From contig BROI01000036.1 in assembly GCA_027923505.1 (NCBI GenBank), positions 62,001 through 126,000 of the forward strand: a DNA stretch of 64,000 bases. The letters run 5' to 3'. A program made the translations under genes and the position numbers. This document shows positions 1 to 62,470 of the stretch, one piece after another (positions within the stretch are counted from its first letter, which is position 1; every line of letters starts with the position of its first letter). This DNA comes from Mayamaea pseudoterrestris (Eukaryota). The notes below the pieces were generated by a model. It was not told where the DNA came from and searched no databases. It saw only the letters and a program-made list of their open reading frames with translations.

Positions 1-3000
1 TTTCGCAGCTACTCGCCTTCCATTCCTGCAGTAGAGAAGACTCATGGACCACCTTTGCAAGGAGCTGTCGGAAGCAAGAATGCATATCATGGCCGAGTAA
101 CTCCTGGAATGACAGATAAGCTCCGAAAGCGCCAGCAACGAAAGCATGAGGAGCAGACTTTGTCGCCAGATGTTACAGGGAAACCGAGCTTGCCTCGAGT
201 GGCTACACTATCACAACCACGAACGTTGGCCGCGAACAAGGACTCCCCGGGCAAGGTTCTTCCAAGTTCGCCTCGCATTCCACCCAATCTAAGTATGACG
301 GGTCGTGGGCCGGGTTCAAAGACTATTTCAGCCGTAAGTCGGATTCATCCTCCATCTCCCACTTCGTCTGCAACGAAGCGATCAGATGCGGCAAATTTTC
401 AAGGACGACTCCAGCGTTTGCGTAGTTTCAGTCCTACCGTAATTGGAGAGCAAAGCAACGCAGTGAAATCATCTCCTGCTGTTATTACAACACGTCCGGA
501 TCCTCCAATAATACATGGGTTAAAAATGAAACCAAAAGCGGATGCACCTGCTCACAGCTATACGTTGCCAACCGTTGCCAGTCGCAAGAAAACTAGAGAT
601 GCCGCTTTATCGACGACATCTCGGTCCCCAAGGTCGAACAAAATACTTCCAGGAGTAAGCAATTCACCAACTAACAAAGATGACATCGTCAGGAATAACG
701 CTTTCTCAATGACGGGATCGACGGCGTCTGGGTTGTCTCGGCGACCTTACAATTTAGCGACAAGCACCGGCGCAGTTGTAAATCGCCTGCAGAGCTCGAG
801 TTCATGTTCGACCGATGAAGGATCGACAACGCTGTCGCTGGCGTCGATGGGAACTGATATCAACAAGCTGAGGACAATCATCCGAAAGTCGCGGTCAAAA
901 CCCATTCCGGAACGAGCGTTAATGCTTGACGAGTCTACCTCATTTTACTCATCATGCGACGAATCAAACATTAAAGACCCTGTCCACAGAGCTGGTCTGC
1001 GCTTTCTGTCCAAAGCCATCGTTCCTATTCAGTCAGCAGTACGGCGACACCTTGCACTGAGGGAGGCATTGACGCGGATGTGGGCCATTGTTATCATTCA
1101 AGCTCTCGCCAGACGCGTCTTGGCTCAAAAACAATACTTCCACACGGTTGTCACGACCATTATGATCCAAGCTTGGTGGAGGGGTTGTCAAGTACGCGAC
1201 CGACTGTTACTAAAGCAATGCTGTGCCATTGAGATCCAGCGTTTTGTCCGTGGGTATTTGGCGACCATGAGCGTCTACGAAGACATTTTTCGAGTTACCA
1301 TCGTGCAAAGTGTAGCTCGGCGGAAGGTTGCAATCGAGCGAGCTACCGATCGAATGATTTTCATCATCCATAGTCAATCTCTTGCTCGTGGGTTCCTTCA
1401 GCGACTTCGGATGAAGAGGATGATTTCAGCTGCAACCGTACTTCAGACAAAATGGCGAGCATTCTTCTGTCAATTCAACTATCAGCTAGACGTTCTCGAT
1501 ATAATCATCGTTCAAAGTGCTTGGCGGAGAAGGTCCGCCACCGTCAAGGTCCGAGACTTGCAACGCGTGCGGCGAGTCAATGCAGCGATCAAGATACAGT
1601 CAAAGGTCAGGGCCGGTGTTTGTAGATCCAACTTTGTCATTCTTCGAGCAATTGTCAAGATCCAGTCGACATGGCGAATGTGGGCCTGTTTCAATACTTA
1701 CCAAGACTACAGAGCTGCTGTAAAAATTCAATCAGTTTGGCGAGGTTTTGTTTGTGCTCGAACCTATTTGGAATATATCGCTGCTGTTGTCATTCAAGCA
1801 AAGGTACGGATGTTCCTAAGCACAAAACGTTATACTGCATACATCGCGGCAAGACTTATACAAAGCAACATACGGGCAAGATTGTGCCGTGTTACATTTG
1901 TCGAGTATTTAAGTGCCCGCAAGATCCAGGCTCGCATTCGGTGCTACTCTGCCTCCTCGTGGTATATTGGATACATAAATGCAAGGCGTATCCAAACGCA
2001 AGTTCGTCGCTATATCGCATTAAAGAGTTACACGGAATACTCGGCAGCAGTTGTGATTCAATCGAATCTTCGTTGCTTTCTTTGCTCAAAGCGGTACATC
2101 GAATACATTGCCGCAACAATGATACAGTCGCAGTTCCGCCGCCACCAATGCGCAAGTGCCTACATCGACTATTGTTCGGCTCGAAAGATACAAGCAGCTT
2201 ACCGGAGGTCGGTATGTCGTTGCATTTATGTTGAATACGTTGCCGCGCGAAGGCTCCAGACAGCGTATCGGCGTCGTTCTTGCAGAAATGCATTCGTGAG
2301 GTATGTTGCGGCTCGGAAAATCCAGGCCAGCTTTAGGCGGTACGTTTGCTCCAAATCGTACGTTGAGTATCTTGCGGCTACAATAATTCAGGCAACTTTT
2401 CGATGCTCCATCCAAAGGGCCAAGTGCAAACGGTACATTGCCGCTCGAAAGATCCAGGCTTCTTATCGGCGTCATGTTTGCTTATCATCTTACGTGCGGC
2501 ATATTGCTGCGTCAGCGATTCAAGCGATTGTTCGTCGGTATATATGTTTAAGTGCCTACCACGAATATATTGCTGCCAGAAAGATCCAGTCACAGTTTCG
2601 ACGCTACATATGTTATCAGCCGTACGTCGAGTATATCGGAGCAAGTCGACTACAAGCGGCGGCTCGCGGCTACTTGTGCCGTGAACAATACATTAAGTAC
2701 CTTGCCGCCAGGAGGATACAAGCAGCATTTAGAGGGTATGCGCGATACCACACTTATATCGAGTACGTTGCGGCACGCACAATCCAGTGTGGTCTCCGGA
2801 AGCATATTTGCATGCAGGTTTATCTGGCGATGAAGTCAGCCAAAGTCATTCAAACAGCATTTCGTCGGCATGTTTGTTACCAAGCATTCACAAACTTCAT
2901 GGCCGCGAGATGCATTCAAACACGTGCAAGAGGTTACCTGTGCCGTGTAGCATACGTTGATTACATTGCCGCAAAGATTATACAGACAACCTACCGCCGT

Positions 3001-6000
3001 CATGTCTGTTATCGAGCATACTCTGACTACATGGCAGCAAAATGCATCCAGACTCGAGTTCGGGGCTACTTATGTCGCTCAGCATACATTGACTACATTG
3101 CAGCAAAGGTAATCCAGACTTCCTACCGCCGTCACGTCTGCCATCACGCATACTCCAATTATATTGCGGCAAGATGCATTCAAACTCAAGTTCGAGGATA
3201 CTTGCGTCGCTCGGCGTATATAAACTACGTCGCTGCAAAACTCATCCAGTCGATCTACCGCCGCCATGTGTGCTATCAAATGTATTCAAACTATATGGCA
3301 GCGCTGTGCATCCAAACTCAAATTCGAGGTTACCTGTGCCGGTCTGCATATGACGATTACATTGCTGCGAGATATATTCAAGCACAGTTTCGCCGTCACC
3401 TATGTCGCAGTGCATATACTGAGTACATAAGCGCCAGAAAGATACAGAGCTTGATTCGAAAACTTCACAGCCGACGCAGGTTCACGCGAAAAGTTCTTGA
3501 AATTCGCAGTGCTATCGTCGCACAAACAACTTGGAGAAAGTATGTCAATGTAAAGGCCTACCGCCAGATAATTGCAGTCATCAGGATACAATCACAGTTT
3601 AGGAGCTATGTGGTCCGCCGGAAAAAGGAGCGGCTTGACTCTTCATTGAAAATTCAATGCAAGTGGAGAACATTTGTGTGCAGGCGGTCATATTTTGAGT
3701 TGCGTTCTGTAGTAAGAATACAATCCTACTGGAGAATGTTTGCGTGCTCAAAACATTACCTTGAGTATATTGCTGCGATGATTGTTCAGACTCAGTGGCG
3801 GGCCTTTGCTGCGCATAAAAGGTACAAGCAAGAACGCGGCGCAACAAAAATACAAGCTCACTGGAGAGCATTCGTATGCTCTCGGGAGTATTTGCTTCGC
3901 GTTGCTGCAACAATGATTCAGGCTCAGTTCCGAATGCAACGCCATCGAAAGGTCTACAAGCGATATAGATCAGCCACCAGCATCCAGGCAGCGTGGCGAT
4001 CTTATGACTGCGCCATGGAATATTTAAGAGTTGTCGCTGACCTTTTAATCGTCCAAAGTGTGGCTCGACGCTGGTTGGCCACCAGACGAGTACAGGCCGT
4101 CAAGAACAAAAGCGCCTTGAAAATTCAAAAAGCTGTAAAAGGATACTTGGCGCGAGTCTATTTGCAGTCGCGCAGGGAAGAATTGAATGCCGCCGTCAAT
4201 ATCCAGCGGGCATGGAGAGGTTTTGTGGTTTACACGGAATACTGTTTCACAATTGCTTATGTTGTCGTATGCCAAAGTGTGGTCAGAAGAATGCTCGCTG
4301 TCAAGTCGTGTGCTAAGATGCAAATTGTTCGCAAGAGACATGCTGTGCGGGTCATCCAAACCTTTGCTCGTCAGCAGCTGGCAAAGAGAATCAGGGCTTC
4401 GGTTCAAATTCAATGTTTTTGGCGCGGATTTCTCGGCCAAGCTCAATATCTCATTGCAAAGTGTGAATGCGACGCAGCAACAACTATTCAAAGCCATTGG
4501 CGTCGCTTCTGGTGCTATTCCAATTTCGTGATTAGCATTCACAGCTCAATCCTGATCCAGTCAACCTTTCGCATGCACAAGGAATTGACAGAGTATGATG
4601 TGAAGTTAGAAGCGATCGCTGCAATTCAGGATTGCTTTCGGTGTTACTTGGCACAAAAGAACTCCCATCAGCAGTCGCTTGTCCGTTGTATCATACAAGC
4701 GGCTGATCCAATCGAAGCTCGTGAGCGCCAAAGCGCCGTACAGATACAAAAGGTTTTACGAGGGAGCAAGGCTCGAGCATCCGTAGACAAACATTTGGCT
4801 GCTCGAGACATCCAGTCAGCTTGGAGACGTGCGTTTGCTAGAGCGTACTTCATCGACTACATCTCAGCGCGTCGTATTCAAGCATTTTGGCGTTGCAAGT
4901 TCCTCTCCATTCCGTACAAACGTCGACGAGCTGCTGTGCAGATTCAGTGCTTTTGGCGCCAACGAAGCGCGCGTCGCTACTTTGTCGCGTTGCGTGAAGT
5001 ATGCTTGGTTGATGAAATTAAGGCTGCGGTGTTTCTACAAAAGGTGTGGCGTGGAATTGCTGTCCGGTTGGATGAAGGAAAGTTTGTAACATGGCAGCGA
5101 CGTTTATATGTTGAAGAACCGGCTGCTGTGGAAATACAAAAGGTCTGGCGTGGGTTTAATGCAATGCTCCTTTACTGGCATACCCTTGGCTCAGCAATTC
5201 AAGTCCAGAGTACCGTGCGAAGCTGGATCACACGCGTGCGGCTATCTCGAGAGCGCCATTCAGTGCTTCTTCAACGTGTTACTCGCGGATATATTGCTCG
5301 TATGAGCGTCGCCAAGATCCGATCACACTTAGAGGCGATTGAGCTGCAGCATTTGGCAGCAACTTTGATTCAAAGTTCTTGGCGTGGGTACACGGCTCGT
5401 GTTACCTTCGAAGACCTCATTGTTTGCGAAGACAGTGCGACTCTCATCCAAGCGTCCTTCCGGGCGTACAAGGCTCGTCTAGCAATGATTCAATTGCTGA
5501 TGATTTTAAGATTGCAGTCGGTCGCGCGCCGATGGTTAGCTTGTTCCAGGAGTGCCGAGAAGCTTGGTGCTATCATTTACTTGCAATGCATCGCCCGTGG
5601 CATGCTTGCTCGCAAGCAAGCCACAGAGCGACGTGCCATCATGCAACTCGAGAAAATTGGCGCAGCCTCCTCAAGTCCCTCGCTTAAAATATTAAACTCA
5701 TTGCACTCCAGCCTCCTATCACCTCGCCTCGGTTCACTACGTTGCGATCGCAATCCCGTCGCTACTTTGCAACAAGATATTGAGCTCGATGAGACTGTTG
5801 CCATCAAGGAAAAGGCTGCTAGACGTATCCAGCGTTTCTTCTTGATGGTCAAAGCAGAGGTTGATCAAGAAATTCGTCGCGCACTTGAGAAGAAGCGTCG
5901 TAAGAAGCGAAAGATCCACAAAAAGAAGCTCAGAGATCGCGACGACGAGATTTTGGAGAACATTTGGTCCATGACAATGGACGAGAATGCTGGCGGGTTC

Positions 6001-6489
6001 GACTTTGAAGTTGCAAATTTTGCGGCGATGAGCAAAACCCGACCAATGCAAGAGCGAAATCGACCTGGATCATCGCTTCGCAACATGCCTTCCATGTCTG
6101 GGGGCTTTGTTTCCACCACAACAGACGCGGAAAGCAGCCATAAGAGTGGTCCGATTTGGGAACAATGGTCATGTACAGCACCATTGAGAGCAGCGTCGCC
6201 GGCATTCAGCGTCGAGATGAAATTTCCTCCGTCTCGTCTTGCAACACTGTCACGCGCTGAGTTTGATGACGACTTGTTCCTCGAAGAAGCTTGGATTGAT
6301 ACGGAAGTTCGCCAAGCAAAGGAGCGTCGTTTGATCAACAAGGCAAAAAAGTCTCACAGGACACAGATACCAGATGGCGCAGGGCCCCCATCCTCACGAG
6401 CCTCGAATCATGAGAGACCATCGTCAAGGACGTCCTACAAACCTGAACGACCTCCGTCACAATCATCGCACCAGCGAATGATGGTGTAG
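1..6489 (+). CDS. Giant IQ-motif repeat protein (ASPM/abnormal-spindle-like IQ array), 5'-partial
   Basis: Frame 1 is open from base 1, so the gene may start left of the window. It has a Ser/Pro/Arg-rich N-terminus, then dozens of IQxxxRxxxxR motifs (about 1020-5850) and a basic KKRRKKRK patch near the C-terminus. No CH or myosin motor domain is visible in the window. Confidence 0.85.
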   Translation, partial: FRSYSPSIPAVEKTHGPPLQGAVGSKNAYHGRVTPGMTDKLRKRQQRKHEEQTLSPDVTGKPSLPRVATLSQPRTLAANKDSPGKVLPSSPRIPPNLSMTGRGPGSKTISAVSRIHPPSPTSSATKRSDAANFQGRLQRLRSFSPTVIGEQSNAVKSSPAVITTRPDPPIIHGLKMKPKADAPAHSYTLPTVASRKKTRDAALSTTSRSPRSNKILPGVSNSPTNKDDIVRNNAFSMTGSTASGLSRRPYNLATSTGAVVNRLQSSSSCSTDEGSTTLSLASMGTDINKLRTIIRKSRSKPIPERALMLDESTSFYSSCDESNIKDPVHRAGLRFLSKAIVPIQSAVRRHLALREALTRMWAIVIIQALARRVLAQKQYFHTVVTTIMIQAWWRGCQVRDRLLLKQCCAIEIQRFVRGYLATMSVYEDIFRVTIVQSVARRKVAIERATDRMIFIIHSQSLARGFLQRLRMKRMISAATVLQTKWRAFFCQFNYQLDVLDIIIVQSAWRRRSATVKVRDLQRVRRVNAAIKIQSKVRAGVCRSNFVILRAIVKIQSTWRMWACFNTYQDYRAAVKIQSVWRGFVCARTYLEYIAAVVIQAKVRMFLSTKRYTAYIAARLIQSNIRARLCRVTFVEYLSARKIQARIRCYSASSWYIGYINARRIQTQVRRYIALKSYTEYSAAVVIQSNLRCFLCSKRYIEYIAATMIQSQFRRHQCASAYIDYCSARKIQAAYRRSVCRCIYVEYVAARRLQTAYRRRSCRNAFVRYVAARKIQASFRRYVCSKSYVEYLAATIIQATFRCSIQRAKCKRYIAARKIQASYRRHVCLSSYVRHIAASAIQAIVRRYICLSAYHEYIAARKIQSQFRRYICYQPYVEYIGASRLQAAARGYLCREQYIKYLAARRIQAAFRGYARYHTYIEYVAARTIQCGLRKHICMQVYLAMKSAKVIQTAFRRHVCYQAFTNFMAARCIQTRARGYLCRVAYVDYIAAKIIQTTYRRHVCYRAYSDYMAAKCIQTRVRGYLCRSAYIDYIAAKVIQTSYRRHVCHHAYSNYIAARCIQTQVRGYLRRSAYINYVAAKLIQSIYRRHVCYQMYSNYMAALCIQTQIRGYLCRSAYDDYIAARYIQAQFRRHLCRSAYTEYISARKIQSLIRKLHSRRRFTRKVLEIRSAIVAQTTWRKYVNVKAYRQIIAVIRIQSQFRSYVVRRKKERLDSSLKIQCKWRTFVCRRSYFELRSVVRIQSYWRMFACSKHYLEYIAAMIVQTQWRAFAAHKRYKQERGATKIQAHWRAFVCSREYLLRVAATMIQAQFRMQRHRKVYKRYRSATSIQAAWRSYDCAMEYLRVVADLLIVQSVARRWLATRRVQAVKNKSALKIQKAVKGYLARVYLQSRREELNAAVNIQRAWRGFVVYTEYCFTIAYVVVCQSVVRRMLAVKSCAKMQIVRKRHAVRVIQTFARQQLAKRIRASVQIQCFWRGFLGQAQYLIAKCECDAATTIQSHWRRFWCYSNFVISIHSSILIQSTFRMHKELTEYDVKLEAIAAIQDCFRCYLAQKNSHQQSLVRCIIQAADPIEARERQSAVQIQKVLRGSKARASVDKHLAARDIQSAWRRAFARAYFIDYISARRIQAFWRCKFLSIPYKRRRAAVQIQCFWRQRSARRYFVALREVCLVDEIKAAVFLQKVWRGIAVRLDEGKFVTWQRRLYVEEPAAVEIQKVWRGFNAMLLYWHTLGSAIQVQSTVRSWITRVRLSRERHSVLLQRVTRGYIARMSVAKIRSHLEAIELQHLAATLIQSSWRGYTARVTFEDLIVCEDSATLIQASFRAYKARLAMIQLLMILRLQSVARRWLACSRSAEKLGAIIYLQCIARGMLARKQATERRAIMQLEKIGAASSSPSLKILNSLHSSLLSPRLGSLRCDRNPVATLQQDIELDETVAIKEKAARRIQRFFLMVKAEVDQEIRRALEKKRRKKRKIHKKKLRDRDDEILENIWSMTMDENAGGFDFEVANFAAMSKTRPMQERNRPGSSLRNMPSMSGGFVSTTTDAESSHKSGPIWEQWSCTAPLRAASPAFSVEMKFPPSRLATLSRAEFDDDLFLEEAWIDTEVRQAKERRLINKAKKSHRTQIPDGAGPPSSRASNHERPSSRTSYKPERPPSQSSHQRMMV
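2900..3430 (+). repeat. Coding tandem repeat with a 132-nt (44-aa, two-IQ) unit, about 4 copies
   Basis: CIQT(R/Q)xRGYL recurs with TGC codons at 2911, 3043, 3175 and 3307, exactly 132 nt apart, alternating with IQxxYRRHVC. Confidence 0.9.
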
Positions 6490-6605: not shown

Positions 6606-8273
6606 TCATGTGTCGTTCAGCTTCTCGTAATCCTTTTTCTTTTCCTGCAACTTGTTCCAGTCGCATCGCACTTGTAATCCCTTCCAACAGCTCTCGTAGT
6701 CAACGTCGCACAAGTCTTCCGCCTGCGGGCTCGTCCGCATCATAAGGCAGCTTTCAAACATGAACGCCAGCCCCTTGTCGAAATAGACTGGCGCGTCGCA
6801 GGGATCCGCCACGGCCGCGTCGTAGGCGTCGGCATCCGGTCCATGCGGCACCATGGCGTTATGCAGCGACGCTCCACCAGGAACAAAGCCACCTGCCGCC
6901 TGCTTGGCATCGTACGCTCCATAAATCAGTCCCATGTATTCGCTCATGCAGTTGCGATGAAACCACGGAGGTCGAAAGGTGTTGGCATCAGCCGCCATGT
7001 AGCGCGGCGGAAAAATGACAAAGTCGGCCAAGGCGGTTCCAGCGTGTGTGGATGGGTACGTTAGAACCGTGTAAATGGACGGATCCGGATGATCGTACGT
7101 GACGCTATTCATGGCGCAAAAGCGCTGCAAATTGTACTTGTAGGGCAAGAAGTTGCCATGCCAGGCAGCCACGTTGAACGGAGAGTGATCTGACTTGCGC
7201 GCGTACAACTCTTGATCCATTTTGAACAAGATTGAGTGAGGCTTGTGATACTCGTCTGGATCGGTAACGCACCAAGCGACTGGATGTGAAAAGTCTCGGG
7301 CATTGGCGAGACCATTGGAGCCCTGCAAAGGCATACGGAGAAGATGAGATGGAAGCATACGAATCTAATGTCAAGACATTCCGTTGTCATCCAATTTGCG
7401 TTACCAGCAACCACTTACAATCGGACCAAGCTCAGGAAGTCGAAAGCCTCCATTACTACTGCAAACTTCCAATACATATCCCTTGGCCGTCGCAGTAGCA
7501 CCTTCACCTGTTGCATCATCATCCTCCACGACAACGCCAAAGACGATACCCTTTGGCACGACGCAAACTTCCGTCGGTCCAATTTGCAGTTTCCCCACTT
7601 CCGTCGTCACCAGCAAGCGCCCCTGCTGCGGAACAATTAAAAAGTCGCCGTCGGCATTGTAAAAGGACTCGTCCACCATGTTGCTGTTGCAAGCATATAG
7701 GTAAATGGACAAGCCGTCGCCGCATCCAGTGCTGGTGGCGCCCGCCGCCACGACGCGCGTCAAACTGTGAATGAAATGGTTCTTCTGCTGTAGAGAGTCG
7801 CTGCTGCTGGTATCAGTATCTTCCGATGCCGCATTCTCTTCCATTGGTTTCCATCGCATGGGCTGCACCGCCACCTTGCAGTCGCGCGGATGATTCTTGC
7901 CAAAGACGCCTCGCTTCATCGTCGTTGCACTCGCTCCATTATCATTCACAAGACTAGATACACTTGGCTGCAGTCGATAGAGCCAGGTTCGCTTGTTTTC
8001 GTGGCGCGGCGCCGTAAAGGCCGTGCCCGACAATTGCTCCGCGTAATATTGACAATTGCGAGGATTGTTGCGGCCCATGGGGAGGGCGCCGCGAATGTAC
8101 TCGCTCTCGAACGAGTTGCCGAAACCAGGTAGATAGAGTAACGTGTCATGGTAAATGTACTGCTGCTGCTGCTGCTGGGCTGGAGTCGTCGCTAACGATT
8201 GCTTCTTGCTAGGCGAGGAAGCTGCAGCCGATTGCGCCGTGGATGGTTGCGACTGCGACTCAATGCTTGCCAT
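6606..8273 (-). CDS. HGD: Homogentisate 1,2-dioxygenase (2 exons; intron 7323-7418)
   Basis: Motifs YAEQLSGTAFTAPR, TWLYR, ADGDFLIVPQQG, DHPDPSIYTVLT, RPPWFHRN.MSEYMGLI and PGGASLH. A phase-0 GT..AG intron restores LGPI|GSNGLAN. Confidence 0.95.
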
Positions 8274-33564: not shown

Positions 33565-33993
33565 ATCCTTTAACTCAAACCCGAAAGAATGATCGAATGG
33601 TGAGTATCATGTTAGCTGGGTCACGGTTTTTGAGTGAGTCGAACATTCGGAGCAGATGCCAATCGAAAAGAGAGTTTTTGACAGGAGTCGCACGTCGAAT
33701 TTGGAGTCCATGCACTGTGTTCATTCGTCCGTCCGACCAATGGGTTTCAAGCACTCGACTCTTCTTTTTGCATTGACTATTTATCGCTCGTATCAGTAGG
33801 TCAACGCAATTAGAGCTCCCAATGCATCACTACACCGTAGCAGTTTCCCTGTTTCCCTGGTCGCTTTCGAAAGTAGGACGACTATCGTACGCAAAACGTC
33901 ATTAATGTCGCATAGCAACTTAATTGACGCCGATCCAAAAATTCTTCGCCCGCCATTGAGCTTGATTTCCATTGACGATGAAGCTCAACCATC

Positions 33994-35400
33994 ATGTCGA
34001 ACGAGGCAAGCAACTATTCGTTAATACTAGCTGCCCCGGGTTGTTCTCACCTTGATCTTACTGCAGCGCTTCTGCAAAAGCAGTGGCCTCGAGGAGGAAG
34101 CATTCAGGATTATTTCGACAAAATCACGAGCTCATCAAAGCATCTTCCATGCAGCTACATTCTTCTTTATGAAGACGCTCCAGTCGGTCATGTTCGCATC
34201 ACTGAGTGTTTGGATGACTCCTCGGCCCGAGCCGTCGCTGCTACATACATCATCACGGAGCCTCGTAACCAAGGATACGGACGCATACTGATGAAACTAT
34301 TGGAAAAGCGCGTCAAGCAGCTCAACTATCACTACATTTACGTTTGGACGCATACCGCCGTTGACTTTTACACAAAGTGTGGATACAAGCCAACCCATCG
34401 AGTCTCGCTGCACCGGCCCTGCTTGAAGCGACTGGAATGCAGTCAAGTTTCGCGCATCGAGTCGCTCCTTGCGAGTCGAATGGCAGTCATGCAACATGGC
34501 AGCAGCAGCTGCGACGAATCTACCAAACGACAAGCTGCTACAGCTGAAACAGTTTTGCTGCCTCCGGATGAAATGGTTGATGGCGGCGCGTCGGTAATTG
34601 AGGACGTTTGGTTGCGCAAGCGGCTCGTCGAGTGCCTTCCATTGACAATCGTTTCACTCAAACATCGTCTACAGGAGTTACAAGCCTGCACTATAAAGTA
34701 TCCAGAATATGCGTCATGGAAGTACTACATCCGCCACGACGTTCCGTGGACGCAGCAGGTGGGACCATCGTGCGGATTGGCGGCGCTGCGCATGGTGCAT
34801 GGTGCCGCTCAACCGACTACAGCAGTTGCGACGACCGACGATTCCTTGCCTTCTCTATTGGAATACGCCATTCAACAACATTATAGCGATGACGGTGAAC
34901 TATTTGATGCAATGCACCTGCTGCGCCTGGGCCAAGACGTTTGCAACTTGTCATGCCGAACTGAATCGCTGCGAGCAACACCTGCTCGAAAAATATTGTC
35001 GCATTTAATGCAGCGTCGACTACTCGTATTTGCGTACGACTCGCAACCAGCGACCCGCCAACCATGCTGCAACGACGGAAAGTCGGCGCACTACGGCGTC
35101 ATGGTCGGAATGCTCGTGGGGCGCAAAGTGGACGATGGTTTGAATGCAGAGACGTTGCGTTCGCCAACGCCTATTGACGAGCTCAGTCAGGCCGACTTGA
35201 TATCTCTTGAGAATGATCCCTTGTCTTCAGAGTGCGTCATGCTAGCTCTTGTCCAGCATGGATTGTCAAACAAGCTGACGATTGCTACCTAGGATGCTTT
35301 CTGCATGTCGAATCTGCAGCTTCGAATGGTCGATGCCGACAAGTATCCTCACGCTACCAACCTCAATCTGATGGACCACTTGATAGTATTTACAGATTAG
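33994..35400 (+). CDS. Fusion of an NAA80-like GNAT acetyltransferase and an ACTMAP (C19orf54)-like cysteine protease; in-frame TAG at 35290-35292
   Basis: N-half: LLQKQWPR, LPCSYIL, VGHVRI, AcCoA motif RNQGYGRILM, FYTKCGY and terminal strand WLRKRL. C-half: QVGPSCGLAAL, GELFDA, AYD, PC..DGKSAHY, QHGLS and, past the TAG, SNLQL. Confidence 0.8.
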
Positions 35401-35739
35401 CATAAGCGTTTTGGTCAACATGCTATCGTGCCTTATAACCTGATAAGCACGTATCGTGCCGGTGCTTGTTAGAGTAAGAGCTCCGAGAACTGACGCCTAC
35501 TGTTAACAACGTATTTGACGAGCTGCGCTGGCTGGCCACAATGTTGTCGTAGAGTGCGTACAATAGCAGCGACGGCGGCTAGCTTGAACAGCAAAACATG
35601 AATTCACACAAACGAAGAGCGTGGGTAGAATAAAATTGCTGGCTATTGTTTCATTGTATTCTAAGGGATTCTCTTTAAAGGAAAGGCGCCATATCTCCTA
35701 AATATTCTCCTTCCACATCCGCTTAAATTCACATGATTT

Positions 35740-38484
35740 CTACGACGCAAAGGACGCAATCCAGTCACTGATGGATGAGTGGGCGGCTTGCTCATCAAGG
35801 CTCATAAGTTTTTCCACAACAACAGTCTCTTCATATGACACTGGACCGCCGCGTTTAGCGAGAACCATGCAGGCAAACTCAGCGGGACGACCGTCCGTCA
35901 AAAAGTAATCTGGGCAAGACTTGAGCATCTCCAGCGACATCAAGTCGAGTCGCATCCAACTGGCTAGAATCGTCGCCATGTGGCTGGCGGCTAGCGGCGC
36001 ATCAATCTCAATGTCGCGAAGACTTTCCATTGGAGCCTGTACGCCGGCCACGAGCGAGTCCGAACTAATCTTCTTCTCCTGAATGCACCGTTCCAATACA
36101 CTTAGCATCTTTTCAACCTCGTCCTTCTTCATTTCTAAAATCATCATTACAGCCGCTTCAATCATGGCGGCACCACGCTCCACATGACCGTCCTCTCCAA
36201 AGCAAACAATTTCATCCACTGTCAAGACGGCATCATTAAAATCACCGCTCATGAAAAATTCTTTAAATAAACTTTTGCCTCGTTTCGCGCATTCCGATGC
36301 ATCAAAGTGCTCTTTTGTCGTTCGAGCAGAAGGCGACTCTGTCGATAGCGCAGTCGGTGAGACAGTCCGCAAAGTCTTGGGGTTTACAGAAGTAGCCTCA
36401 CTCTTTCCACCATTCTTGCCCTTGCTACCGGTAGTCTTCCCCTCGGCAGCCAATTGCAAACTTGTCTTTGGTCCGCTGCCGCCAGATGGCTGGGCCTTGG
36501 TGCTTACAACCTCTAACGAGCTTCGGCGCGACGCGTTCTTCTTTGGCTTGGCAACGTTTACAAATCCATCTTCATCAGGAATAGCTTCCACGCTTGTCGT
36601 CGACTGCGAACGAATCATAGTCAAGGACTTGCGGCTGCCATTGCTGGCCAAGCTCACTGCCGACTGTTGGCTCATCCGTCGCTGTGCCGCCTCCTCCTGC
36701 AAAACCTCCTTGTGAATCTCCTTGATGGACTTGGCCTTCTCCTGCTTGCGACGATGCACCCAGTTATTTTCCTTGAGTTCAATGAGGTCCTGCAGTAAAA
36801 ACTTGACGCGAACAGAAGGTGCCTTCAGACGCTCCTTGTCAGCGTCAGTCAGCTCCTCCTTGCCGGCAGCAAGCTCCGTTGGAACAGGTATACCTGCCAT
36901 GACATAAACTTGCCGCCAAACTGCCTGCATGGCCTCGTCCTTCTCCGTCTCGTCATCATGCAGACGAGATCCAATCGTGGTCATGAGTTTGCAAAAGCAG
37001 TCCAACCGCTCCTCATCATCCGGCTGCAACAGCTTTTGCAAACAACCAATCATAATGTCACCCTTGATGAGACCAACGTGGTATAGCTCGCCGATGAAAT
37101 GCATGAGACCAATGCTCTTCTTGCGAGCCAGCAATTCGTCAAGTTCCTTTTCGCGCGCGTCGCTAGTTGTCGAGTCGTTGAGTGCGGCTGCGCTACTAGT
37201 TGACGCTGCATTACCACCACCGTTACCAGTATCCGCCGCTGCCGCAACTGCTGCTCCATTGCCACTACTAGTCGCAACAACATCTTGCTCATTAAACAGT
37301 TCCTGACATAGCGCCAGCAGCGTTCGTCGAAAGGACTTGTGCGCCTTGCCCAAGCGTTCGGCAAACCGCGCGTACAATTCACAAAAGTGCGGCTCCAACA
37401 TGGCCTTGTCAACCAACAAACGCATCATTTTTGAAATGACTGGTTTGGTGAGTACCAAGTCTTTCACGTCACTGTCCTTGGTCAAACCAAGGGCCTGTAG
37501 AAAGGACTTGGTGAGCTTGTCGAGCGTCGTCCAGGAAAGCTTGTTAAGAATGGCAAAGGCCTTGCCAATCTGCTCCTCCTCCTCGGGCGAAAGGACATTG
37601 GCGTCTCCAGTTTCGGCACTACTACTAATGTCATTCGCATTCTTCTTCTTGACGCGCTTCGGTTTCCATCGCGTGTCATTGTTCACCGCCAATGGCTGCA
37701 AGTCGTTCATGGCTTGCATTTCCGCTTGAATCAACTCGACGCGATCCTTGGCCGTCCAGTGCGCATACAAATGCGGAGTCCAATAGTAATTGTTTTGACT
37801 GCTGGAAGCTACATCATTCTCATCGCTTGCAGCTGCCGTATTGTCATTGCTAGCGCCAACTTTATCTGCTTTCGTTTCCTTCCGTTCAACCTCACGCGGC
37901 GCTTCCAAGTATTTCATGCGGCACGCGAGAAAGTGCGACTGCGGAATGCGAACGACTGCAGTATCCGCATTCGTATCGTCGAGAAAGAGTACAATTTCAT
38001 CCAGCGTCTTGGTCGAGGCCAATTTCGCCGGCTTGGGCTTGTCCTTGCTGCCGCTCATGCTGGGGCGCTTCTTGCTGTTTCCAGAATGATTGGATGCAGC
38101 AGCATGAGGAGTAGCAGCGGCAGCTAGCGAGGAAGGTCCGTGACTGGCGCGAGTCTGCTTTTCATCTTGGTGCTTGGAAAAGTGAGCGTGCTTTTGGCTG
38201 GAAGGTTGCGACGCATAGTTTCCGCTTCGATGTCCGGCGCCGCGTCCTCCGGCGTTCGTCACGCCTCGTCCGCCACTAGCGGCTGTACTATGCAAGCCTC
38301 TTCCAGCTACGCGGTCCTTGCTACTAGACGCGGCAGTCTTCCATCCTCCAGCGGCTGGCTTTGCTGTGGTCGTCGTCTTGCTGCTTCCTTTACTAGTCGC
38401 CGAAGACGCTGCTGAAGCAAGACTGCTCGTTGGCTTTGGCGGCTCCTTGACCACGGCGGAAGCTCCTTTGCCCCAGGCGCTCAT
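35740..38484 (-). CDS. eIF4G-family translation initiation factor (MIF4G + MA3 domains)
   Basis: MIF4G: ILNKLS, DKAMLEPHFCELYA, GLMHFIGELY, CKLMTTIG, RVKFLLQDLIEL..NNW. C-terminal MA3: KEFF.SGD, DIEIDAPLA. Confidence 0.9.
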   Translation of the reverse strand: MSAWGKGASAVVKEPPKPTSSLASAASSATSKGSSKTTTTAKPAAGGWKTAASSSKDRVAGRGLHSTAASGGRGVTNAGGRGAGHRSGNYASQPSSQKHAHFSKHQDEKQTRASHGPSSLAAAATPHAAASNHSGNSKKRPSMSGSKDKPKPAKLASTKTLDEIVLFLDDTNADTAVVRIPQSHFLACRMKYLEAPREVERKETKADKVGASNDNTAAASDENDVASSSQNNYYWTPHLYAHWTAKDRVELIQAEMQAMNDLQPLAVNNDTRWKPKRVKKKNANDISSSAETGDANVLSPEEEEQIGKAFAILNKLSWTTLDKLTKSFLQALGLTKDSDVKDLVLTKPVISKMMRLLVDKAMLEPHFCELYARFAERLGKAHKSFRRTLLALCQELFNEQDVVATSSGNGAAVAAAADTGNGGGNAASTSSAAALNDSTTSDAREKELDELLARKKSIGLMHFIGELYHVGLIKGDIMIGCLQKLLQPDDEERLDCFCKLMTTIGSRLHDDETEKDEAMQAVWRQVYVMAGIPVPTELAAGKEELTDADKERLKAPSVRVKFLLQDLIELKENNWVHRRKQEKAKSIKEIHKEVLQEEAAQRRMSQQSAVSLASNGSRKSLTMIRSQSTTSVEAIPDEDGFVNVAKPKKNASRRSSLEVVSTKAQPSGGSGPKTSLQLAAEGKTTGSKGKNGGKSEATSVNPKTLRTVSPTALSTESPSARTTKEHFDASECAKRGKSLFKEFFMSGDFNDAVLTVDEIVCFGEDGHVERGAAMIEAAVMMILEMKKDEVEKMLSVLERCIQEKKISSDSLVAGVQAPMESLRDIEIDAPLAASHMATILASWMRLDLMSLEMLKSCPDYFLTDGRPAEFACMVLAKRGGPVSYEETVVVEKLMSLDEQAAHSSISDWIASFAS

Positions 38485-56647: not shown

Positions 56648-59398
56648 TTAAACATTTTCGCGCGGGCGCTTCAACTCGTCTTCGCCGAACAACAACGCAT
56701 TATCGTCATCATAATGCTTGGCCTCATCGTCGTCGACACGCAACACTGCATCATTCTCGTCAAGAAGGAGCGCCTCGCTACTTTCAAAGAATCCAGATCC
56801 TTGCGTTTCGGATCCTCTCGCTGTATGATAGGATGCTTCGGCGGGAAAAAGGTCAACACTCGTGGCATCGCCAACGACTGTATCCGAGCCTTGCGCTTCC
56901 TCATCACTGTCCTCGCCCTCACCGCGACGATACGGCATGGGTTTGCGTTCATCCTCGCTGGCCTTCAAGCATGGTTGAGCATAGGCGAGGCTCTCCAATG
57001 TATCGTTGCCATCACCCTTAAGCTCGCCTCGCTTCTCGTCAAACTCGGCAGCCGTCTCGAGCGAAACGTTCATGAGAGGGCCAGCTACGTTTTTACGCAG
57101 CTGGTGATGGGCAATCATTGTGCCGACTAGCGCGACAATGGCAGTAAAGATGGCTGGACCACCTGCTTCCTGTGATTGCGAAAAAGAAACGGTTTAAGAA
57201 GTTGTTACTAGAATGCGAAACACAGCATTCAATCTTCGGCGGAACTTACCTTCAAACCAAGATAGGCACACATAATAAACTCGGCCATGTACAAGCACAC
57301 TAGAATGAAAGCGGATATCTTCTCCCAGATCAATCCACCGGTCTCAAACTCTTGCGAGTAAACGTGCAAGCACTGATGCTTCCAGACCAAGTACCAAATT
57401 CCAAAGTAAACGGCCGCAAAGACTTCCAAGATGGGGACAATGGCCATGTACGTAAACGTCAACAAGAAGATGAAAATGATGGCGGGAACCTTCTTTCCAA
57501 ACTCAATCGACTGTGGCTTCTTTCTCTCATCCAGCATTCGCTGTGTCTGCGACGGCTCTGGTCGAATGCACTTCATAATAGCGTCCTTCACCCAGTACGT
57601 CGCCTGCGAAAGCTCGAGTCCGTAGTACAAGAAGGAGCCAGTGATGACAAGATTCACAAAGAAGGTTGTTGCACCCGGCAATGCCGCAGCCAGCAGGGTT
57701 GCAATCGAACTGGGATTCTCAAACAAAGCATTCAACTGATTGAAGGCGCTTCCTCCAATAATAATCAGCCACAAGTTGGCAAACTGAAAGATTTGATACC
57801 AAAACAACGCATAGGCGTCGACTTGCGCCATGCTCTTTTCGTGAATGAATTTCAGGGCGCACATCTCAAGCGCCTTGTAGAGCAGCGCCATGAAAACCTG
57901 CAAAAGAATGACTGGCAGCAAACCACTGATCAAACCGTAGTAGAATGAGTTGGGATCCAAGGGAGGAATGCCGATCGTCTGCAAAAGCGAGTTTAGATTG
58001 GAAAGTCCACTAACAACCGCCATCGGGAAGCTCCAAACTTCGAGAATGAAACGATGTTGGGGATCAGTTAGTAAGGTTGCGTGCCGACAATCATGAGTAT
58101 ATCAGCCGCGTATACTTACACAACGCAAGAACAATCCACATTCCAGCCGCCAGGGTTCGATAGAGTCCTTGCTTCTTGACAGGGAACGGAATATTCTCCC
58201 AATGAATATCTTTAGGAACCGGCGCATTGTCGCAGTCCAAAAAGTTGACCTTCTCCGACAGCTCGCACTGAACTGCTTCCTGCTTGGCTCGCATGCTACG
58301 AAAGGTGACAAAGGCTGTCGACACAGGCAATGGTGCGCTATCATCTTGTTCGGTCTGAGAGTCTTGATCCGTTAAGTCAACGCTCTTCGATTCATTGTTG
58401 CCTCTCTGTGAGCCCTTGAATGAGACTCTGCTCGATCCTTGCGCCGCAAGCTCGTTGTTTTTATCAGCAAGCGCGATGGCCTTGGCGCGTTCCTCGTCAA
58501 TCTCACGATTCAATCTCTCGATTTCGCCTTCGTAAAATGGCACCGCCTCGACTTTTGTGCCACCGAGTCCACACATTTTCGCGCCTTGCTTGGCCTTTGG
58601 TGCTGGCTTGTTTGGCTTGGCGTGAATGTGCGCCGTCGCCTTTTCCAGCTCTTCAATCGCTGTCTGCCGCTCCTTCACCAGCGCATCCAAAACCTTGGTG
58701 TCTTGAACGACATAGACTTGGCGGATATCGCCCGGGAAGAGTCGCTCCATGTATGCTCGCAGACGATGATTCGACTGCAAGTGCGACGGCACGTTTTCAA
58801 TGATGGCGGCGTATCTGTAGTCATCGTCAGTGCCCTCCATGCCGTGCACCAAGTAGTGGAGGCGGCGAGGAGCATACTCGTTCTTCCACTCGCTGTAAAG
58901 CAAGTGCATGGTATACGCGCAAAAGGCACTGAATGCAATCGCCGATGCCCACAACCTGTTACCGGCTTGCTCAATCGTCGCCGCGGTGATGCTGTTGAAC
59001 TCCTCCGTATCAGGTCCAGTTCGCGTGCCTGTCGCATAAATCGGAATCAAGAAAATGACACCAACGATACTGCCAAACACTGCGACGCGAAACCCGAGGC
59101 GAAGCATGCGACAAAACATGTACATGTCGAGGCCCATGCAGCGCAACGCTTCGTCGTTGTCGATGCGGTAGGCTGCCAATGCCAACCCCCACCAAGCGTT
59201 CCCCTCGTACGGCGGAGGAGATCGATGAGCCACGCGATGCTGCCGCGTTTCATACGGCATGTGATGGCCGTGCGACTTTTGGTAGCGACGCATCACAGTA
59301 AAAACGCAATGGAGAGCAAATCCAATCACCGAAGAGGTGACGAGGGTGGCCCACACACTCGACCATGGCACCACGGTCTTTGACGAAGAGGAAGACAT
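56648..59398 (-). CDS. OSCA/TMEM63/CSC1-family mechanosensitive channel, copy A (introns 58038-58119, 57169-57249)
   Basis: GLDMYMF.R, AFVTF, AP.P.DI.W.N, LPGA.TFF, HQ.LHVY..EFE.GG..W and many TM segments. Confidence 0.9.
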
Positions 59399-59673
59399 GA
59401 TAGGATATGCCAAACTGCTTGCAGATTTGCAATTGTCGGCAGATTTGATTTTGTGGCGCACCTCGCTGGGATATTTCGCAAGGTGTATCTTCCCGCCGGA
59501 GCATCGAAGGCGAGACGAAGAGATTCTTTGCGAACTTCTCGTGTCGCAGTGTGATTGTGGCGAATTCGTTCCGACTCCAAACATGTGCCGCATACATACC
59601 GGTACAAACAGCCTCAGCTAGCATATTTGTGACTACGAAAGACAAATGACACAAACCAATGATATTACTAGCG

Positions 59674-62470
59674 TTACATGAAGTGACTCGTCGGAGTCTT
59701 GGATGCATCCTCCTCAAAGACAACTTCAGTACTGGCCTTTTCACCCTCCGAAACATCGTCGTGCGGTGAATCGGTAAAAGCGGGAGCTTCCTCGTCCGTT
59801 CCATCGCCCTTGCGCCGATAAGGCATGGGACCGCGCTCGTCCTCACTGGCTTTGAGACTTGGTTGGGCATATAAGAGCGACTCGACGGCTTGCGCCGATG
59901 AGGCGGCATCTGCTTCACTCAGCGCCAGCTCCCCTTCCTCCGTGTCAATTTTGGCAGCAATGACCAGGGACAAATTCTTCAGCGGTCCGGCAATGTTTCG
60001 ACGGAGCTGGTAGTGCGTGAGGAGTGTGCCAATCACCGTGACCACCAGCGTAAAAATAGCTGGACCTGGAGCTTCCTGCAAGTTTATAGTAATATATAAG
60101 GATGCATAAGTTGCTAGTTCGACATTCTGCCACCATTTGCTTTCCCTCACTTACCTTTAATCCCAAATACGCGCACAAGATGAATTCAGCCATGTACACG
60201 CATGCCATAAAGAAGCTTGAAAGCGTCTCCCATATCAAACCCCCTCCTTCAAACTCTTGCGCGTAAACGTGCAGACACTGATGCTTCCACACTAGGTACC
60301 ATCCACCAAAATACACCATGGCAAAAATTTCCATGAGCGGAACAATCGGCATGTAAATCAGCCTGCAAAACAAGAGGGGACGGCGAGAAGTGAGCCATTG
60401 GATACAGAGAAACCCCTCGTAGCTTCACTCGTTTTCGTTCACTCCATTCCATGAAATACTCACGTTACCATGACAATAAAGACCACGGGAGGTAGTGTTT
60501 TGCCCCAAGCAATCGACGGTGGTTGGAGCTTGGCGTCAAGCATGCGTTGCGTCTGTGCTGGCTCCGACGTGATCATGCCAATGATCTTGTTGACAATGTA
60601 CGGCACAAACTGCGACAACTCCAGTCCAAACGCCAAAAAGGAACCCATGATAATCAAGTTCACAAAGAACGTACTCGCACCCGGCAACGACTTGGCCAGT
60701 ATGGTCGCAATCGAAGAAGGGTCTTCCAGGATTGCGTGAAGTTGATTGAAGGCACTGCCACCAATGAGAATCAACCACAAGTTGGCAAACTGGTAAATCT
60801 GGTGCCAGAAGAATGTATAGGAATCAACCTTTCCCATGCTTTTGACTCGCACCAGCCTCTTGGCGCATCCTTCAATCGACATGTACAAGACCATCATCAA
60901 AATTTGCAAAAAGACAACCGGCAAAATACCACTGATAATGCCGTAGTAAAACGTGTTGGCGTTGAGCGTTGGAAGCTTGAAGGTTGTCAGGAGCGAATTC
61001 AAGTTGGCCAATCCTGTGACGAACAAGACAGGCAAGGCCCAAACTGAAACGAATGGCCAGTACAGATGAGTGAATGAGTTGAGATTCGTGCGTCAAACCA
61101 TGAATTCATTGACAGTGCACCGGTACGTTTTACTCACACACTGCGCCGGTAATCCAAAAGGCTGCGGCAAGCATGGCGGCGTAGCGCTGTCTCGTGACTG
61201 ACACGGGCACGTTTCTCCACAAAATGCCGTTTGGAATGGGGGCATTTTCGCAGTCCATATTGTCCACCTTGCCCGACAGTTCGCACTGCACGGCCGTTTG
61301 CTTGGCGCGCAGACTCGTAAATGTGACAAAGGCGGTGGCGGCTTGACGATCCTGCTTGGACTGGTCGGTGGAAATGTCTGGATCGCTCTTGGTCATGTCT
61401 GGGTCGCTCATGGAGTGGTACTTAGTGTCGGGTTGCTGCTGCTTGATCGAGTCGCCTAGGGCCACCTTCTCATTGGCTGCAGTGGCAGCATCTCGGTCCG
61501 CCTGCTCATGTATCATGGCTCGCTTTGCGTCAATCTCCTTGTTCAAACGATCGATTTCGCTATTCAAATAATGAATGGCATCCACCTTGGGTCCTCCAAG
61601 TAGTCCAAAGAGCTTGGCGTTTTCCTTCATTTGCGGCGCCGGCTTGGTTGGCTTGGCCTTGGTAAAGGCAATGGCCTTTTCGAGCGCTTCAATCTTGGTT
61701 TGACGCTCCTCGATCAACTTGTCAAGCTCGGTCGTATTTTGAACAACGTATACAGACTTGACTTGCTTCGGAAACAATTGATCCAAATAGGAATGAAGTT
61801 TAGCATTGGATCGCAAGGCGACTGGAACACTTTCCAGCATGACCGAGTAGCGATAATCCTTGGGCGTATTGACATCTCCAGTCGCCAGGAACTGGCTCCG
61901 CAGCGGCGCGTAAACGTCGCGCCACTCCAAATACAGGGATCGCATCGTAAACGCCATGAATAGCAAAAACGCCAAGGCTGTCGCCCAAAGTCTTGCACTC
62001 TGCTGCTCCACGCTGGCAATGGTAATGACGTTGAACTGCTCGGTGGCGGCACCCGTCGCCTTGCCCGTTCCATACACAATCATGAGCAAAACTCCCAGTA
62101 TACTTCCAAAGGTTGACATGCGAAATCCAAGGCGCAGCAAACGCGTAAACATGAAGCAGTCCAAGCCCATGAATTTCAACGCTTCGTCATCACTGATGCG
62201 AAAGGCTTCCACCGCCCATCCAAACCAGGCGCTTCCAGTAAAAGCAGGCGGACTCGTACTGGATCGAGTCAATAGTCGCTTCTCATATAGTGTCAAGTGA
62301 TTGCTCTTGGAGTGCTTGGAGCGCGTCATGGCGAAGAATACGTAAAAGACGAAACCGACGGCGAAGGAAATAATGAGCGTCACCCAAACGACGCTCCAGG
62401 GAACAATCACGTCAGCGTCTCCCGTCGTGGCGTCGTCCGTATTGGCGGCGCCGCCGCTATTATCAGACAT
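59674..62470 (-). CDS. OSCA/TMEM63/CSC1-family mechanosensitive channel, copy B (introns 61044-61137, 60363-60463, 60076-60154)
   Basis: Same motifs as copy A. Shared C-terminal YAQP.LKASEDER.PMPYRR indicates a tandem paralog. Confidence 0.9.

Follow-up and report, generated by a model that had tools for sequence, protein, structure and literature searches.

Does a single diatom gene encode both of the enzymes that act in succession on the N-terminus of actin in animals? The question is raised by a locus of the pennate diatom Mayamaea pseudoterrestris, in a stretch of 64,000 nucleotides that we call the window (NCBI GenBank assembly GCA_027923505.1, contig BROI01000036.1, positions 62,001 to 126,000 of the forward strand; all coordinates below count from the first letter of the window). 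There, an open reading frame (ORF) that begins at position 33994 of the plus strand joins a GNAT domain resembling NAA80 to a cysteine-peptidase domain resembling ACTMAP. In animals, ACTMAP removes the acetylated first residue of actin and NAA80 then acetylates the new end, as set out in a review of the field (PMC11735805). On the sequence comparisons made here, the NAA80-ACTMAP-type fusion is an old and widespread family with conserved domain order, and we lean, without great firmness, towards the view that the gene encodes a bifunctional enzyme of actin N-terminal maturation, a view that has to be weighed against an in-frame stop codon in the assembled copy and a remodelled substrate pocket in its diatom relatives.

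Two enzyme families in one reading frame

The ATG at 33994 opens a frame that, as assembled, runs for 432 codons and ends at a TAG at 35290-35292; the same frame then continues through 35 further open codons to a second TAG at 35398-35400. Read through, the frame spans 468 codons, in which the TAG at codon 433 is the sole stop in the translation and there are zero frameshifts. The features of the frame and of its N-terminal half are as follows.

33994..35292 (+): ORF as assembled, 432 codons plus TAG (translation)
33905..34066 (+): ATG at 33905 and 71-base intron at 33996-34066, as implied by the deposited protein P0001 when mapped onto the DNA
33994..34632 (+): NAA80-like GNAT domain, residues 1-213 (Pfam, PDB sequence searches, model, Foldseek, VIA)
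34084..34113 (+): alpha1-alpha2 substrate-loop motif W31-P32-R33...Y40 (alignments, family columns; residue roles from PMC5924903)
34264..34281 (+): acetyl-CoA motif R91-N-Q-G94-Y-G96 (Q/RxxGxG), aligned to R96-G-Q-G99-F-G101 of Drosophila NAA80 (DmNAA80)
34417..34605 (+): insertion of about 63 residues, 142-204, ahead of the last GNAT strand (alignment, model)
34609..34626 (+): last GNAT strand WLRKRL, with W206, K209 and R210 nearly invariant (family columns, model, VIA)

By sequence and modelled structure, the N-terminal half is an NAA80-clade N-terminal acetyltransferase with predicted activity. Pfam Acetyltransf_1 matches residues 26-131 (E 1e-11), and a phmmer search against all PDB chains returned human NAA80 at E 2.5e-8 and fly NAA80 at E 1.1e-7, with all other chains above 0.1. 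A profile of 64 family members matched NAA80 chains in the PDB at E 9.3e-18 and 5.2e-17, the next match being a Bacteroides GNAT at 4e-9; among other N-terminal acetyltransferases the same profile gave 1.5e-4 for NAA50, 0.014 for NAA20 and 0.025 for NAA60. The structural comparisons, for which the read-through protein was modelled with AlphaFold2 (468 residues; predicted local distance difference test (pLDDT) 87.1, predicted template modelling score (pTM) 0.83), gave the same ranking. With the full-length model, Foldseek placed five NAA80 entries at ranks 1-5 (1.5e-9 to 2.1e-8) and NAA60 next (2e-6), while VIA-align against structure representatives gave Z 19.5 for both NAA80 structures (root-mean-square deviation (rmsd) 2.4 and 2.7; 151 and 154 residues aligned) and 15.2 for the next GNAT. 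The VIA alignment pairs model residues 1-211 with human NAA80 residues 75-308 and, since it reaches residue 211, takes in the final strand WLRKRL beyond the long insertion. The half is thus nearest to NAA80 and not to other GNATs by phmmer, profile, Foldseek and VIA alike, as an earlier reading made from the DNA letters alone (the sequence-only reading) had proposed.

Several residues of NAA80 have equivalents here. Fly numbers were counted along printed alignments, in which N33, W36, A42, R43, S46, K73, E87 and S88 land on the correct letters. W31 aligns to DmNAA80 W36, in a column that is W in 157 of 160 non-gap rows of the family alignment; H66 and R68 are the equivalents of H71 and K73, the latter column holding R in 134 rows and K in 10. 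Over 196 rows, the two glycines and the arginine of the acetyl-CoA motif are also well conserved (R 163, G 165, G 179; the rest mainly gaps). The insertion at residues 142-204 is modelled with low pLDDT, includes a predicted helix (149-169) and a conserved motif, ETxxLPP, and stands where the long loop of human NAA80 is reported to sit, before the last beta-strand (PMC7141826).

The C-terminal half is, on the same kinds of comparison, an ACTMAP-family papain-like cysteine peptidase, again with activity predicted. The Pfam family ACTMAP-like_C (PF21646) matches residues 253-374 at E 9.5e-23, its 81.3 bits being far above the cut-off of 27. A model of this half by itself, built with 79 sequences, was confident (pLDDT 93.5, pTM 0.91), and for it VIA-align returned a series of papain-like folds: the phytochelatin-synthase-like Alr0975 (Z 14.3, rmsd 3.7, 177 aligned), PeiR (13.8), the C39-like peptidase 3ERV (13.3), staphopain C (12.8), the PCAT1 peptidase domain (12.4) and UfSP1 (12.3). 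3ERV was also the top Foldseek match (3.4e-4). No ACTMAP chain in the PDB was matched by sequence in the phmmer and family-profile searches. In the protein Atlas, the nearest clusters were chordate ACTMAP (0.97, 0.96 and 0.95), which we treat as a lead only. A Pfam match so far past its cut-off, together with the papain-like fold of the model, bears out the ACTMAP similarity proposed in the sequence-only reading. The features of this half upstream of the first TAG, and the domain as a whole, are these.

34711..35397 (+): ACTMAP-like papain-fold cysteine peptidase domain, residues 240-468 with the TAG read through (Pfam PF21646, model, Foldseek, VIA, Atlas)
34756..34773 (+): Q255-V-G-P-S-C260, with C260 the putative nucleophile (Q in 193/193 and C in 192/192 non-gap rows)
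35038..35040 (+): D349 of the AYD motif, almost invariant (D in 189/190 non-gap rows)
35089..35091 (+): H366, putative catalytic histidine (H in 188/189 non-gap rows)

Going by the papain pattern, Q255 would be a candidate oxyanion-hole residue, and Q421/H422 or N440 are candidates for the third catalytic residue. In human ACTMAP the catalytic cysteine is C132 and the AlphaFold model is papain-like (PMC13367750).

What the locus holds is a genuine nuclear gene of a pennate diatom, and a conserved one. Base composition is ordinary (GC 0.44-0.53), and so are the surrounding nuclear genes, which include the RNA polymerase II largest subunit, homogentisate dioxygenase and a convergent eIF4G-like gene. 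The database counterpart P0001, NCBI 'hypothetical protein MPSEU_001079400 [Mayamaea pseudoterrestris]', shows 100% identity over 95% of the ORF length. Its 5' gene model, with an upstream ATG and an intron, is probably wrong, and the 33994 start fits better. We prefer that intronless start because its N-terminus matches P0002, the closest homologue, residue by residue and supplies two elements of the GNAT fold, its first strand (8-12) and first helix (20-30), where mean pLDDT per block of 10 residues is 95-97 in the AlphaFold2 model; with the intron of P0001, that strand would be lost, as would half of that helix. A start without an intron, as the sequence-only reading had it, therefore agrees with both homologue and model. 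All ten motifs that it had picked out upstream of the first TAG (LLQKQWPR, LPCSYIL, VGHVRI, RNQGYGRILM, WTH..VDFY.KCGY, WLRKRL, QVGPSCGLAAL, GELFDA, AYD and PCCNDGKSAHY) were located in the translation, and codon arithmetic places WLRKRL from 34609 (W206), the Cys codon at 34771-34773 (C260) and the His codon at 35089-35091 (H366), where it had put them.

Reach of the fusion family and the substrate pocket of diatoms

The joining of two families that act in consecutive steps, proposed from the one ORF, proved to be the standing architecture of a family. Among 196 fetched family proteins, 186 match both half-profiles, with the GNAT first in 186/186, and the remaining ten, which match a single half, are fragment-like (176-347 residues). 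Both domains are held in precomputed Pfam by 73 of 81 close homologues, the named ones belonging to Nitzschia, Cylindrotheca, Pseudo-nitzschia multistriata, Epithemia and a Bacillariaceae metagenome-assembled genome; the UniRef name of the Pseudo-nitzschia multistriata homologue is 'Actin maturation protease'. When 1.84 billion representatives were searched with a profile, 3,890 matched at E<=1e-3, of which 1,099 reached E<=1e-10 and 226 reached E<=1e-30; all of the best 150 lie at E<=3.2e-55, and the majority of them cover profile positions from about 30 to 485. When 30 representatives were looked up, six proved to carry an organism name: Toxoplasma gondii, Besnoitia besnoiti, Cystoisospora suis, the haptophyte Chrysotila carterae, the dinoflagellate Polykrikos kofoidii and the diplonemid Flectonema neradi, whose sequence is from a transcriptome, in which contamination is possible. 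Eight of eight distant representatives clear the Pfam cut-offs for both domains, and BLASTP against the Toxoplasma protein gave one collinear alignment over both halves (E 1e-28, 25% identity). Many marine sequences also fall in the family. A third homologue search, with the family alignment as query, returned the same clade and no new taxa. The suggestion that the fusion is a stramenopile speciality tied to gliding or valve formation does not survive its presence in coccidians, a haptophyte, a dinoflagellate and a diplonemid transcriptome.

Set beside characterized systems, the N-terminal half finds its best match, in sequence and in structure, in NAA80/NatH (human 6NAS/6NBE/6NBW; Drosophila CG8481 5WJD/5WJE), with which it has in common the WPR motif with its W36 equivalent, the H71 and K73 equivalents, RxxGxG and a long insertion before the last beta-strand. 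Unlike NAA80, it is fused to a peptidase, is about 22-26% identical over the VIA-aligned residues, carries an insertion that has its own conserved motifs and lacks a polyproline run for profilin binding, and belongs to a diatom clade in which the R43 and S88 equivalents are not conserved, though they are kept in most non-diatom fusion proteins. With animal ACTMAP/C19orf54 (PF21646), the window protein shares the Pfam family, the invariant Cys and His and the papain-like fold; it differs in that its peptidase is the C-terminal half of a fusion, of which the assembled copy lacks the last 36 residues. The Toxoplasma gondii protein annotated as 'acetyltransferase, GNAT family protein' (779 residues; XP_018634809.1 and others; P0136) has the same domain order and the same catalytic and motif residues, but it is much longer, carries large insertions and is annotated as a GNAT protein only; its relatives in Besnoitia and Cystoisospora have the same two-domain order. 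An analogous logic of trimming and then acetylating one abundant protein has been described for plant AMPP2 and GNAT7 acting on RbcL (PMC13557074), although these are different enzyme families encoded by separate genes, and plants are reported in the same source to have neither ACTMAP nor NAA80.

In the predicted peptide pocket, the diatom members depart from NAA80. In fly NAA80, W36 and R43 are reported to hold substrate Asp2, with alanine mutants of both inactive, and S46, K73 and S88 to contact substrate Asp3 (PMC5924903). The ACETYLTRANSFERASE pocket of the window protein shows a clade-specific change, in that the DmNAA80 R43 column is Y40 here (codon 34111-34113). Among the 196 rows of the alignment, 78 have Y in this column, 70 have R and 4 have K. 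In a tree of the 172 rows with >75% coverage (24 rows were dropped), the Y-bearing sequences together make up one clade, in which all the named diatoms lie. Outside it nearly all members have R, including those of Toxoplasma, Besnoitia, Chrysotila, Polykrikos and Flectonema; the Toxoplasma and Besnoitia assignments adjoin large insertions and are less certain, while in the Chrysotila protein R aligns directly to R43 and 'TS' to E87-S88. The S88 column holds Ser in 66 of 74 non-diatom members and Tyr (58/78) or Phe (20/78) in the diatom clade. At this position the window protein has Tyr85 (34246-34248) by the family alignment and Ala83 by the pairwise one, and thus no Ser either way. From the alignments, the substrate pocket of the diatom clade looks to have been remodelled at two positions as a pair. 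That the non-diatom fusions keep the acidic-substrate contacts of NAA80 strengthens the family assignment.

A stop codon inside the peptidase half

The sequence-only reading had described one continuous frame from 33994 to 35400. That frame is broken by the TAG at 35290-35292, and 35400 is the end of the second stop; the SNLQL motif that it had also listed (35308-35322) is indeed in frame, but it lies downstream of the first TAG.

35290..35292 (+): in-frame TAG, codon 433, where the family has W, Y, L, F, M or A (translation, alignments)
35293..35400 (+): conserved 35-codon tail and family-typical stop at 35398-35400 (alignments, model, VIA)
35308..35322 (+): S439-N440-x-Q442-L443 in the tail (family alignment)

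The tail has the marks of coding sequence under constraint. In an alignment of 81 rows (the window protein and 80 homologues), the column of the TAG holds W in 45 rows, Y in 9, F, M and L in 6 each and H in 2, and is gapless on either side; the tail itself retains the near-invariant residues S439 (80 rows), N440 (80), Q442 (79), L443 (78) and L459 (80). Compared with the C-terminus of P0002, it is identical at 19 of 30 positions (63%, E 6e-11), against 56% for the whole protein. Stopping at codon 433 removes the last 36 residues, which form helix 433-441 (with S439 and N440) and strand 463-467, both of high pLDDT in the models. In the VIA comparison of the peptidase model, 47 of 50 rows align through its last residue, 254, and the other three through 253. 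A protein that stops at residue 432 is probably without a working peptidase, because the missing segment belongs to the core of the fold.

An intron that would explain the TAG is ruled out, as the homologues align without gaps across the codon and have a residue in that column. Nor do we favour an old pseudogene, since conservation beyond the TAG matches that found elsewhere in the gene. According to the genome paper, the assembly was made from Nanopore reads with Illumina polishing, and the organism is diploid, with 2.97% heterogeneity and haplotigs purged (PMC9724779). In contigs of four public runs there are two diverged haplotypes across the gene, with no joints reported; over 35073-35700 neither haplotype is identical to the window, from which they differ by 9 and 29 letters. 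Two of these data sources, runs X1 and X2, come from different studies under different organism labels and gave contigs of the same lengths and the same two haplotypes over 33700-35700. Both X1/X2 haplotypes differ from the window, as would fit a consensus assembly that is a mosaic. When predicted protein fragments were searched for the other allele, using the C-terminal 108 residues with the TAG as X, no candidate came up. We think that the TAG is probably a young nonsense allele on one of the two haplotypes; it is unlikely to be homozygous, a consensus error is a shade less likely again, and its being decoded is scarcely credible.

A proposed role in actin maturation and its alternatives

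As we picture the proposed enzyme, newly made actin would lose its acetylated first residue to the peptidase half and would then have its exposed N-terminus acetylated by the GNAT half, so that one polypeptide would carry out both steps. The pTM of the full-length model (0.83) hints that the two domains are packed as a unit; channelling of the substrate between them is speculation. Outside animals, acetylation at Glu3 has been reported for an actin of a rhizarian (PMC9237673). Several observations weigh against the proposal. As assembled, the gene is truncated, and a complete peptidase domain results only if the TAG is read through. The equivalence of C260 to human C132 is putative, going by the Pfam family match and the motif. 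The insertion contains no polyproline profilin-binding run in the translation of residues 142-204; fly NAA80 is likewise described as having no long loop (PMC5924903), so a profilin-binding loop is not definitive of the whole NAA80 family. No actin gene is found among the 26 large ORFs of the window. Finally, the equivalents of Arg43 and Ser88 are both aromatic in the diatom clade (Ser88 by the family alignment), which argues for an altered peptide pocket. With two of the substrate-contact residues of NAA80 replaced in the clade that holds the named diatoms, specificity for an acidic N-terminus is not to be assumed. We also note that the word 'actin' is absent from the main text of a Thalassiosira N-terminome paper (PMC3774753).

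One alternative interpretation is that the same bifunctional enzyme acts in diatoms on a substrate other than, or beyond, actin, with its pocket re-tuned. The pocket changes speak for this: the R43 column is Tyr in 78/78 diatom-clade proteins, the column in which most non-diatom members have Ser (66/74) is Tyr (58) or Phe (20) throughout the clade, and the two residues replaced are those reported to contact substrate Asp2 and Asp3 in fly NAA80 (PMC5924903). We nevertheless consider it unlikely, while giving it serious weight, because actins are described as the only known substrates of NAA80 and ACTMAP as acting on actin (PMC11735805), a fusion of exactly these two families is kept in 186 of 196 members, and W31 and R68, the equivalents of W36 and K73, are retained. 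A role in the plastid, of the kind known for Rubisco, was set aside: the GNAT fold begins at residue 8, which by our inference leaves no room for a targeting presequence.

The stop codon invites two further interpretations. The gene could be dead or dying in this strain, with the TAG on both haplotypes and, at most, a GNAT domain with a misfolded peptidase stump as product. The TAG is, after all, present in the deposited assembly, the deposited protein P0001 ends there too, and the segment lost belongs to the core of the peptidase fold and includes the invariant S439 and N440; yet the 35 codons after it are open and as conserved as the remainder of the gene, no other stop or frameshift occurs across the 468 codons, and the organism is diploid with two diverged haplotypes at the locus, so that we regard a dying gene as improbable. 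That the TAG is instead decoded, through programmed read-through or recoding, to give the full 468-residue protein would accord with the open and conserved frame beyond it, but no sign of such decoding was seen, other ORFs of the window, translated with the standard code, match Pfam normally, and the homologues have a sense codon in that column; we give this explanation almost no credence. The bifunctional actin maturation enzyme remains the reading that we favour.

A few other features of the window may be mentioned. From its first base, on the plus strand, the window holds an ORF of >2,100 residues (1-6489), open at the window start, with a large array of IQ calmodulin-binding motifs (E 8.7e-94) and no other Pfam domain at E<=1e-5. 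On the minus strand, homogentisate 1,2-dioxygenase (6606-8270) is split into two ORFs (7401-8270 and 6606-7355) that lie 45 bases apart, the gap being most likely a short intron. Two adjacent minus-strand genes (57229-59590 and 61130-62467) with RSN1_TM and PHM7_cyt domains belong to the OSCA/TMEM63-type channel family and are an apparent tandem duplicate; the first of them is followed by a separate ORF that carries the 7TM (seven-transmembrane) region (57229-58020). Next to the fusion gene, the convergent eIF4G-like gene (35740-38484, minus strand; MIF4G and MA3 domains) ends close by: a mere 340 bases or so separate its stop from the family-typical one of the fusion gene, and the 3' ends of the two may therefore overlap.

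The distribution of the fusion sits uneasily with published accounts of the pathway. The review cited above presents NAA80/NatH, and actin maturation by cleavage followed by acetylation, as exclusive to animal cells (PMC11735805). The original NAA80 survey reports an orthologue in some amoebozoa too, names no stramenopile among its sampled organisms, and scores Plasmodium falciparum, Tetrahymena, Emiliania huxleyi, trypanosomes, plants and yeast as being without NAA80 (PMC5924898, Table S2). Our literature searches came upon no description of an NAA80-ACTMAP fusion, with the limits that Haahr et al. 2022 or its supplement might mention one and that NatH together with diatoms was not a search term. 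Judged by title, none of the ACTMAP papers listed deals with protists or with a fusion, and none was found on ACTMAP in diatoms; for NAA80 and diatoms the one paper retrieved is a letter on Paulinella. Papers retrieved for NAA80 and Toxoplasma include none on the fusion by their titles and abstract openings, and the two terms do not occur together in the passages seen of PMC11796330. What was already known is that both domains are detectable by Pfam and that one UniRef entry bears the name 'Actin maturation protease'. What appears to be new is their union: in lineages said to be without the pathway, a single gene combines two families that take successive steps in animals.

The finding is of interest mainly at the level of the family and not for the stop-bearing copy in the window. 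As genomic evidence, the fusion independently ties the two activities to a single pathway, and its spread shifts the likely origin of that pathway far back in eukaryote history. Taken jointly, the comparisons allow a tentative picture, to which we give somewhat less than even credence, in which actin N-terminal maturation would be an old eukaryotic pathway, carried out by a single fused enzyme in much of the stramenopile, alveolate and rhizarian assemblage and in haptophytes, Toxoplasma included, with the pocket of the diatom clade re-tuned to a different N-terminal sequence. In tractable organisms such as Phaeodactylum and Toxoplasma, a single knockout would remove both steps, and the diatom-specific pocket changes are a natural experiment on the specificity of NAA80.

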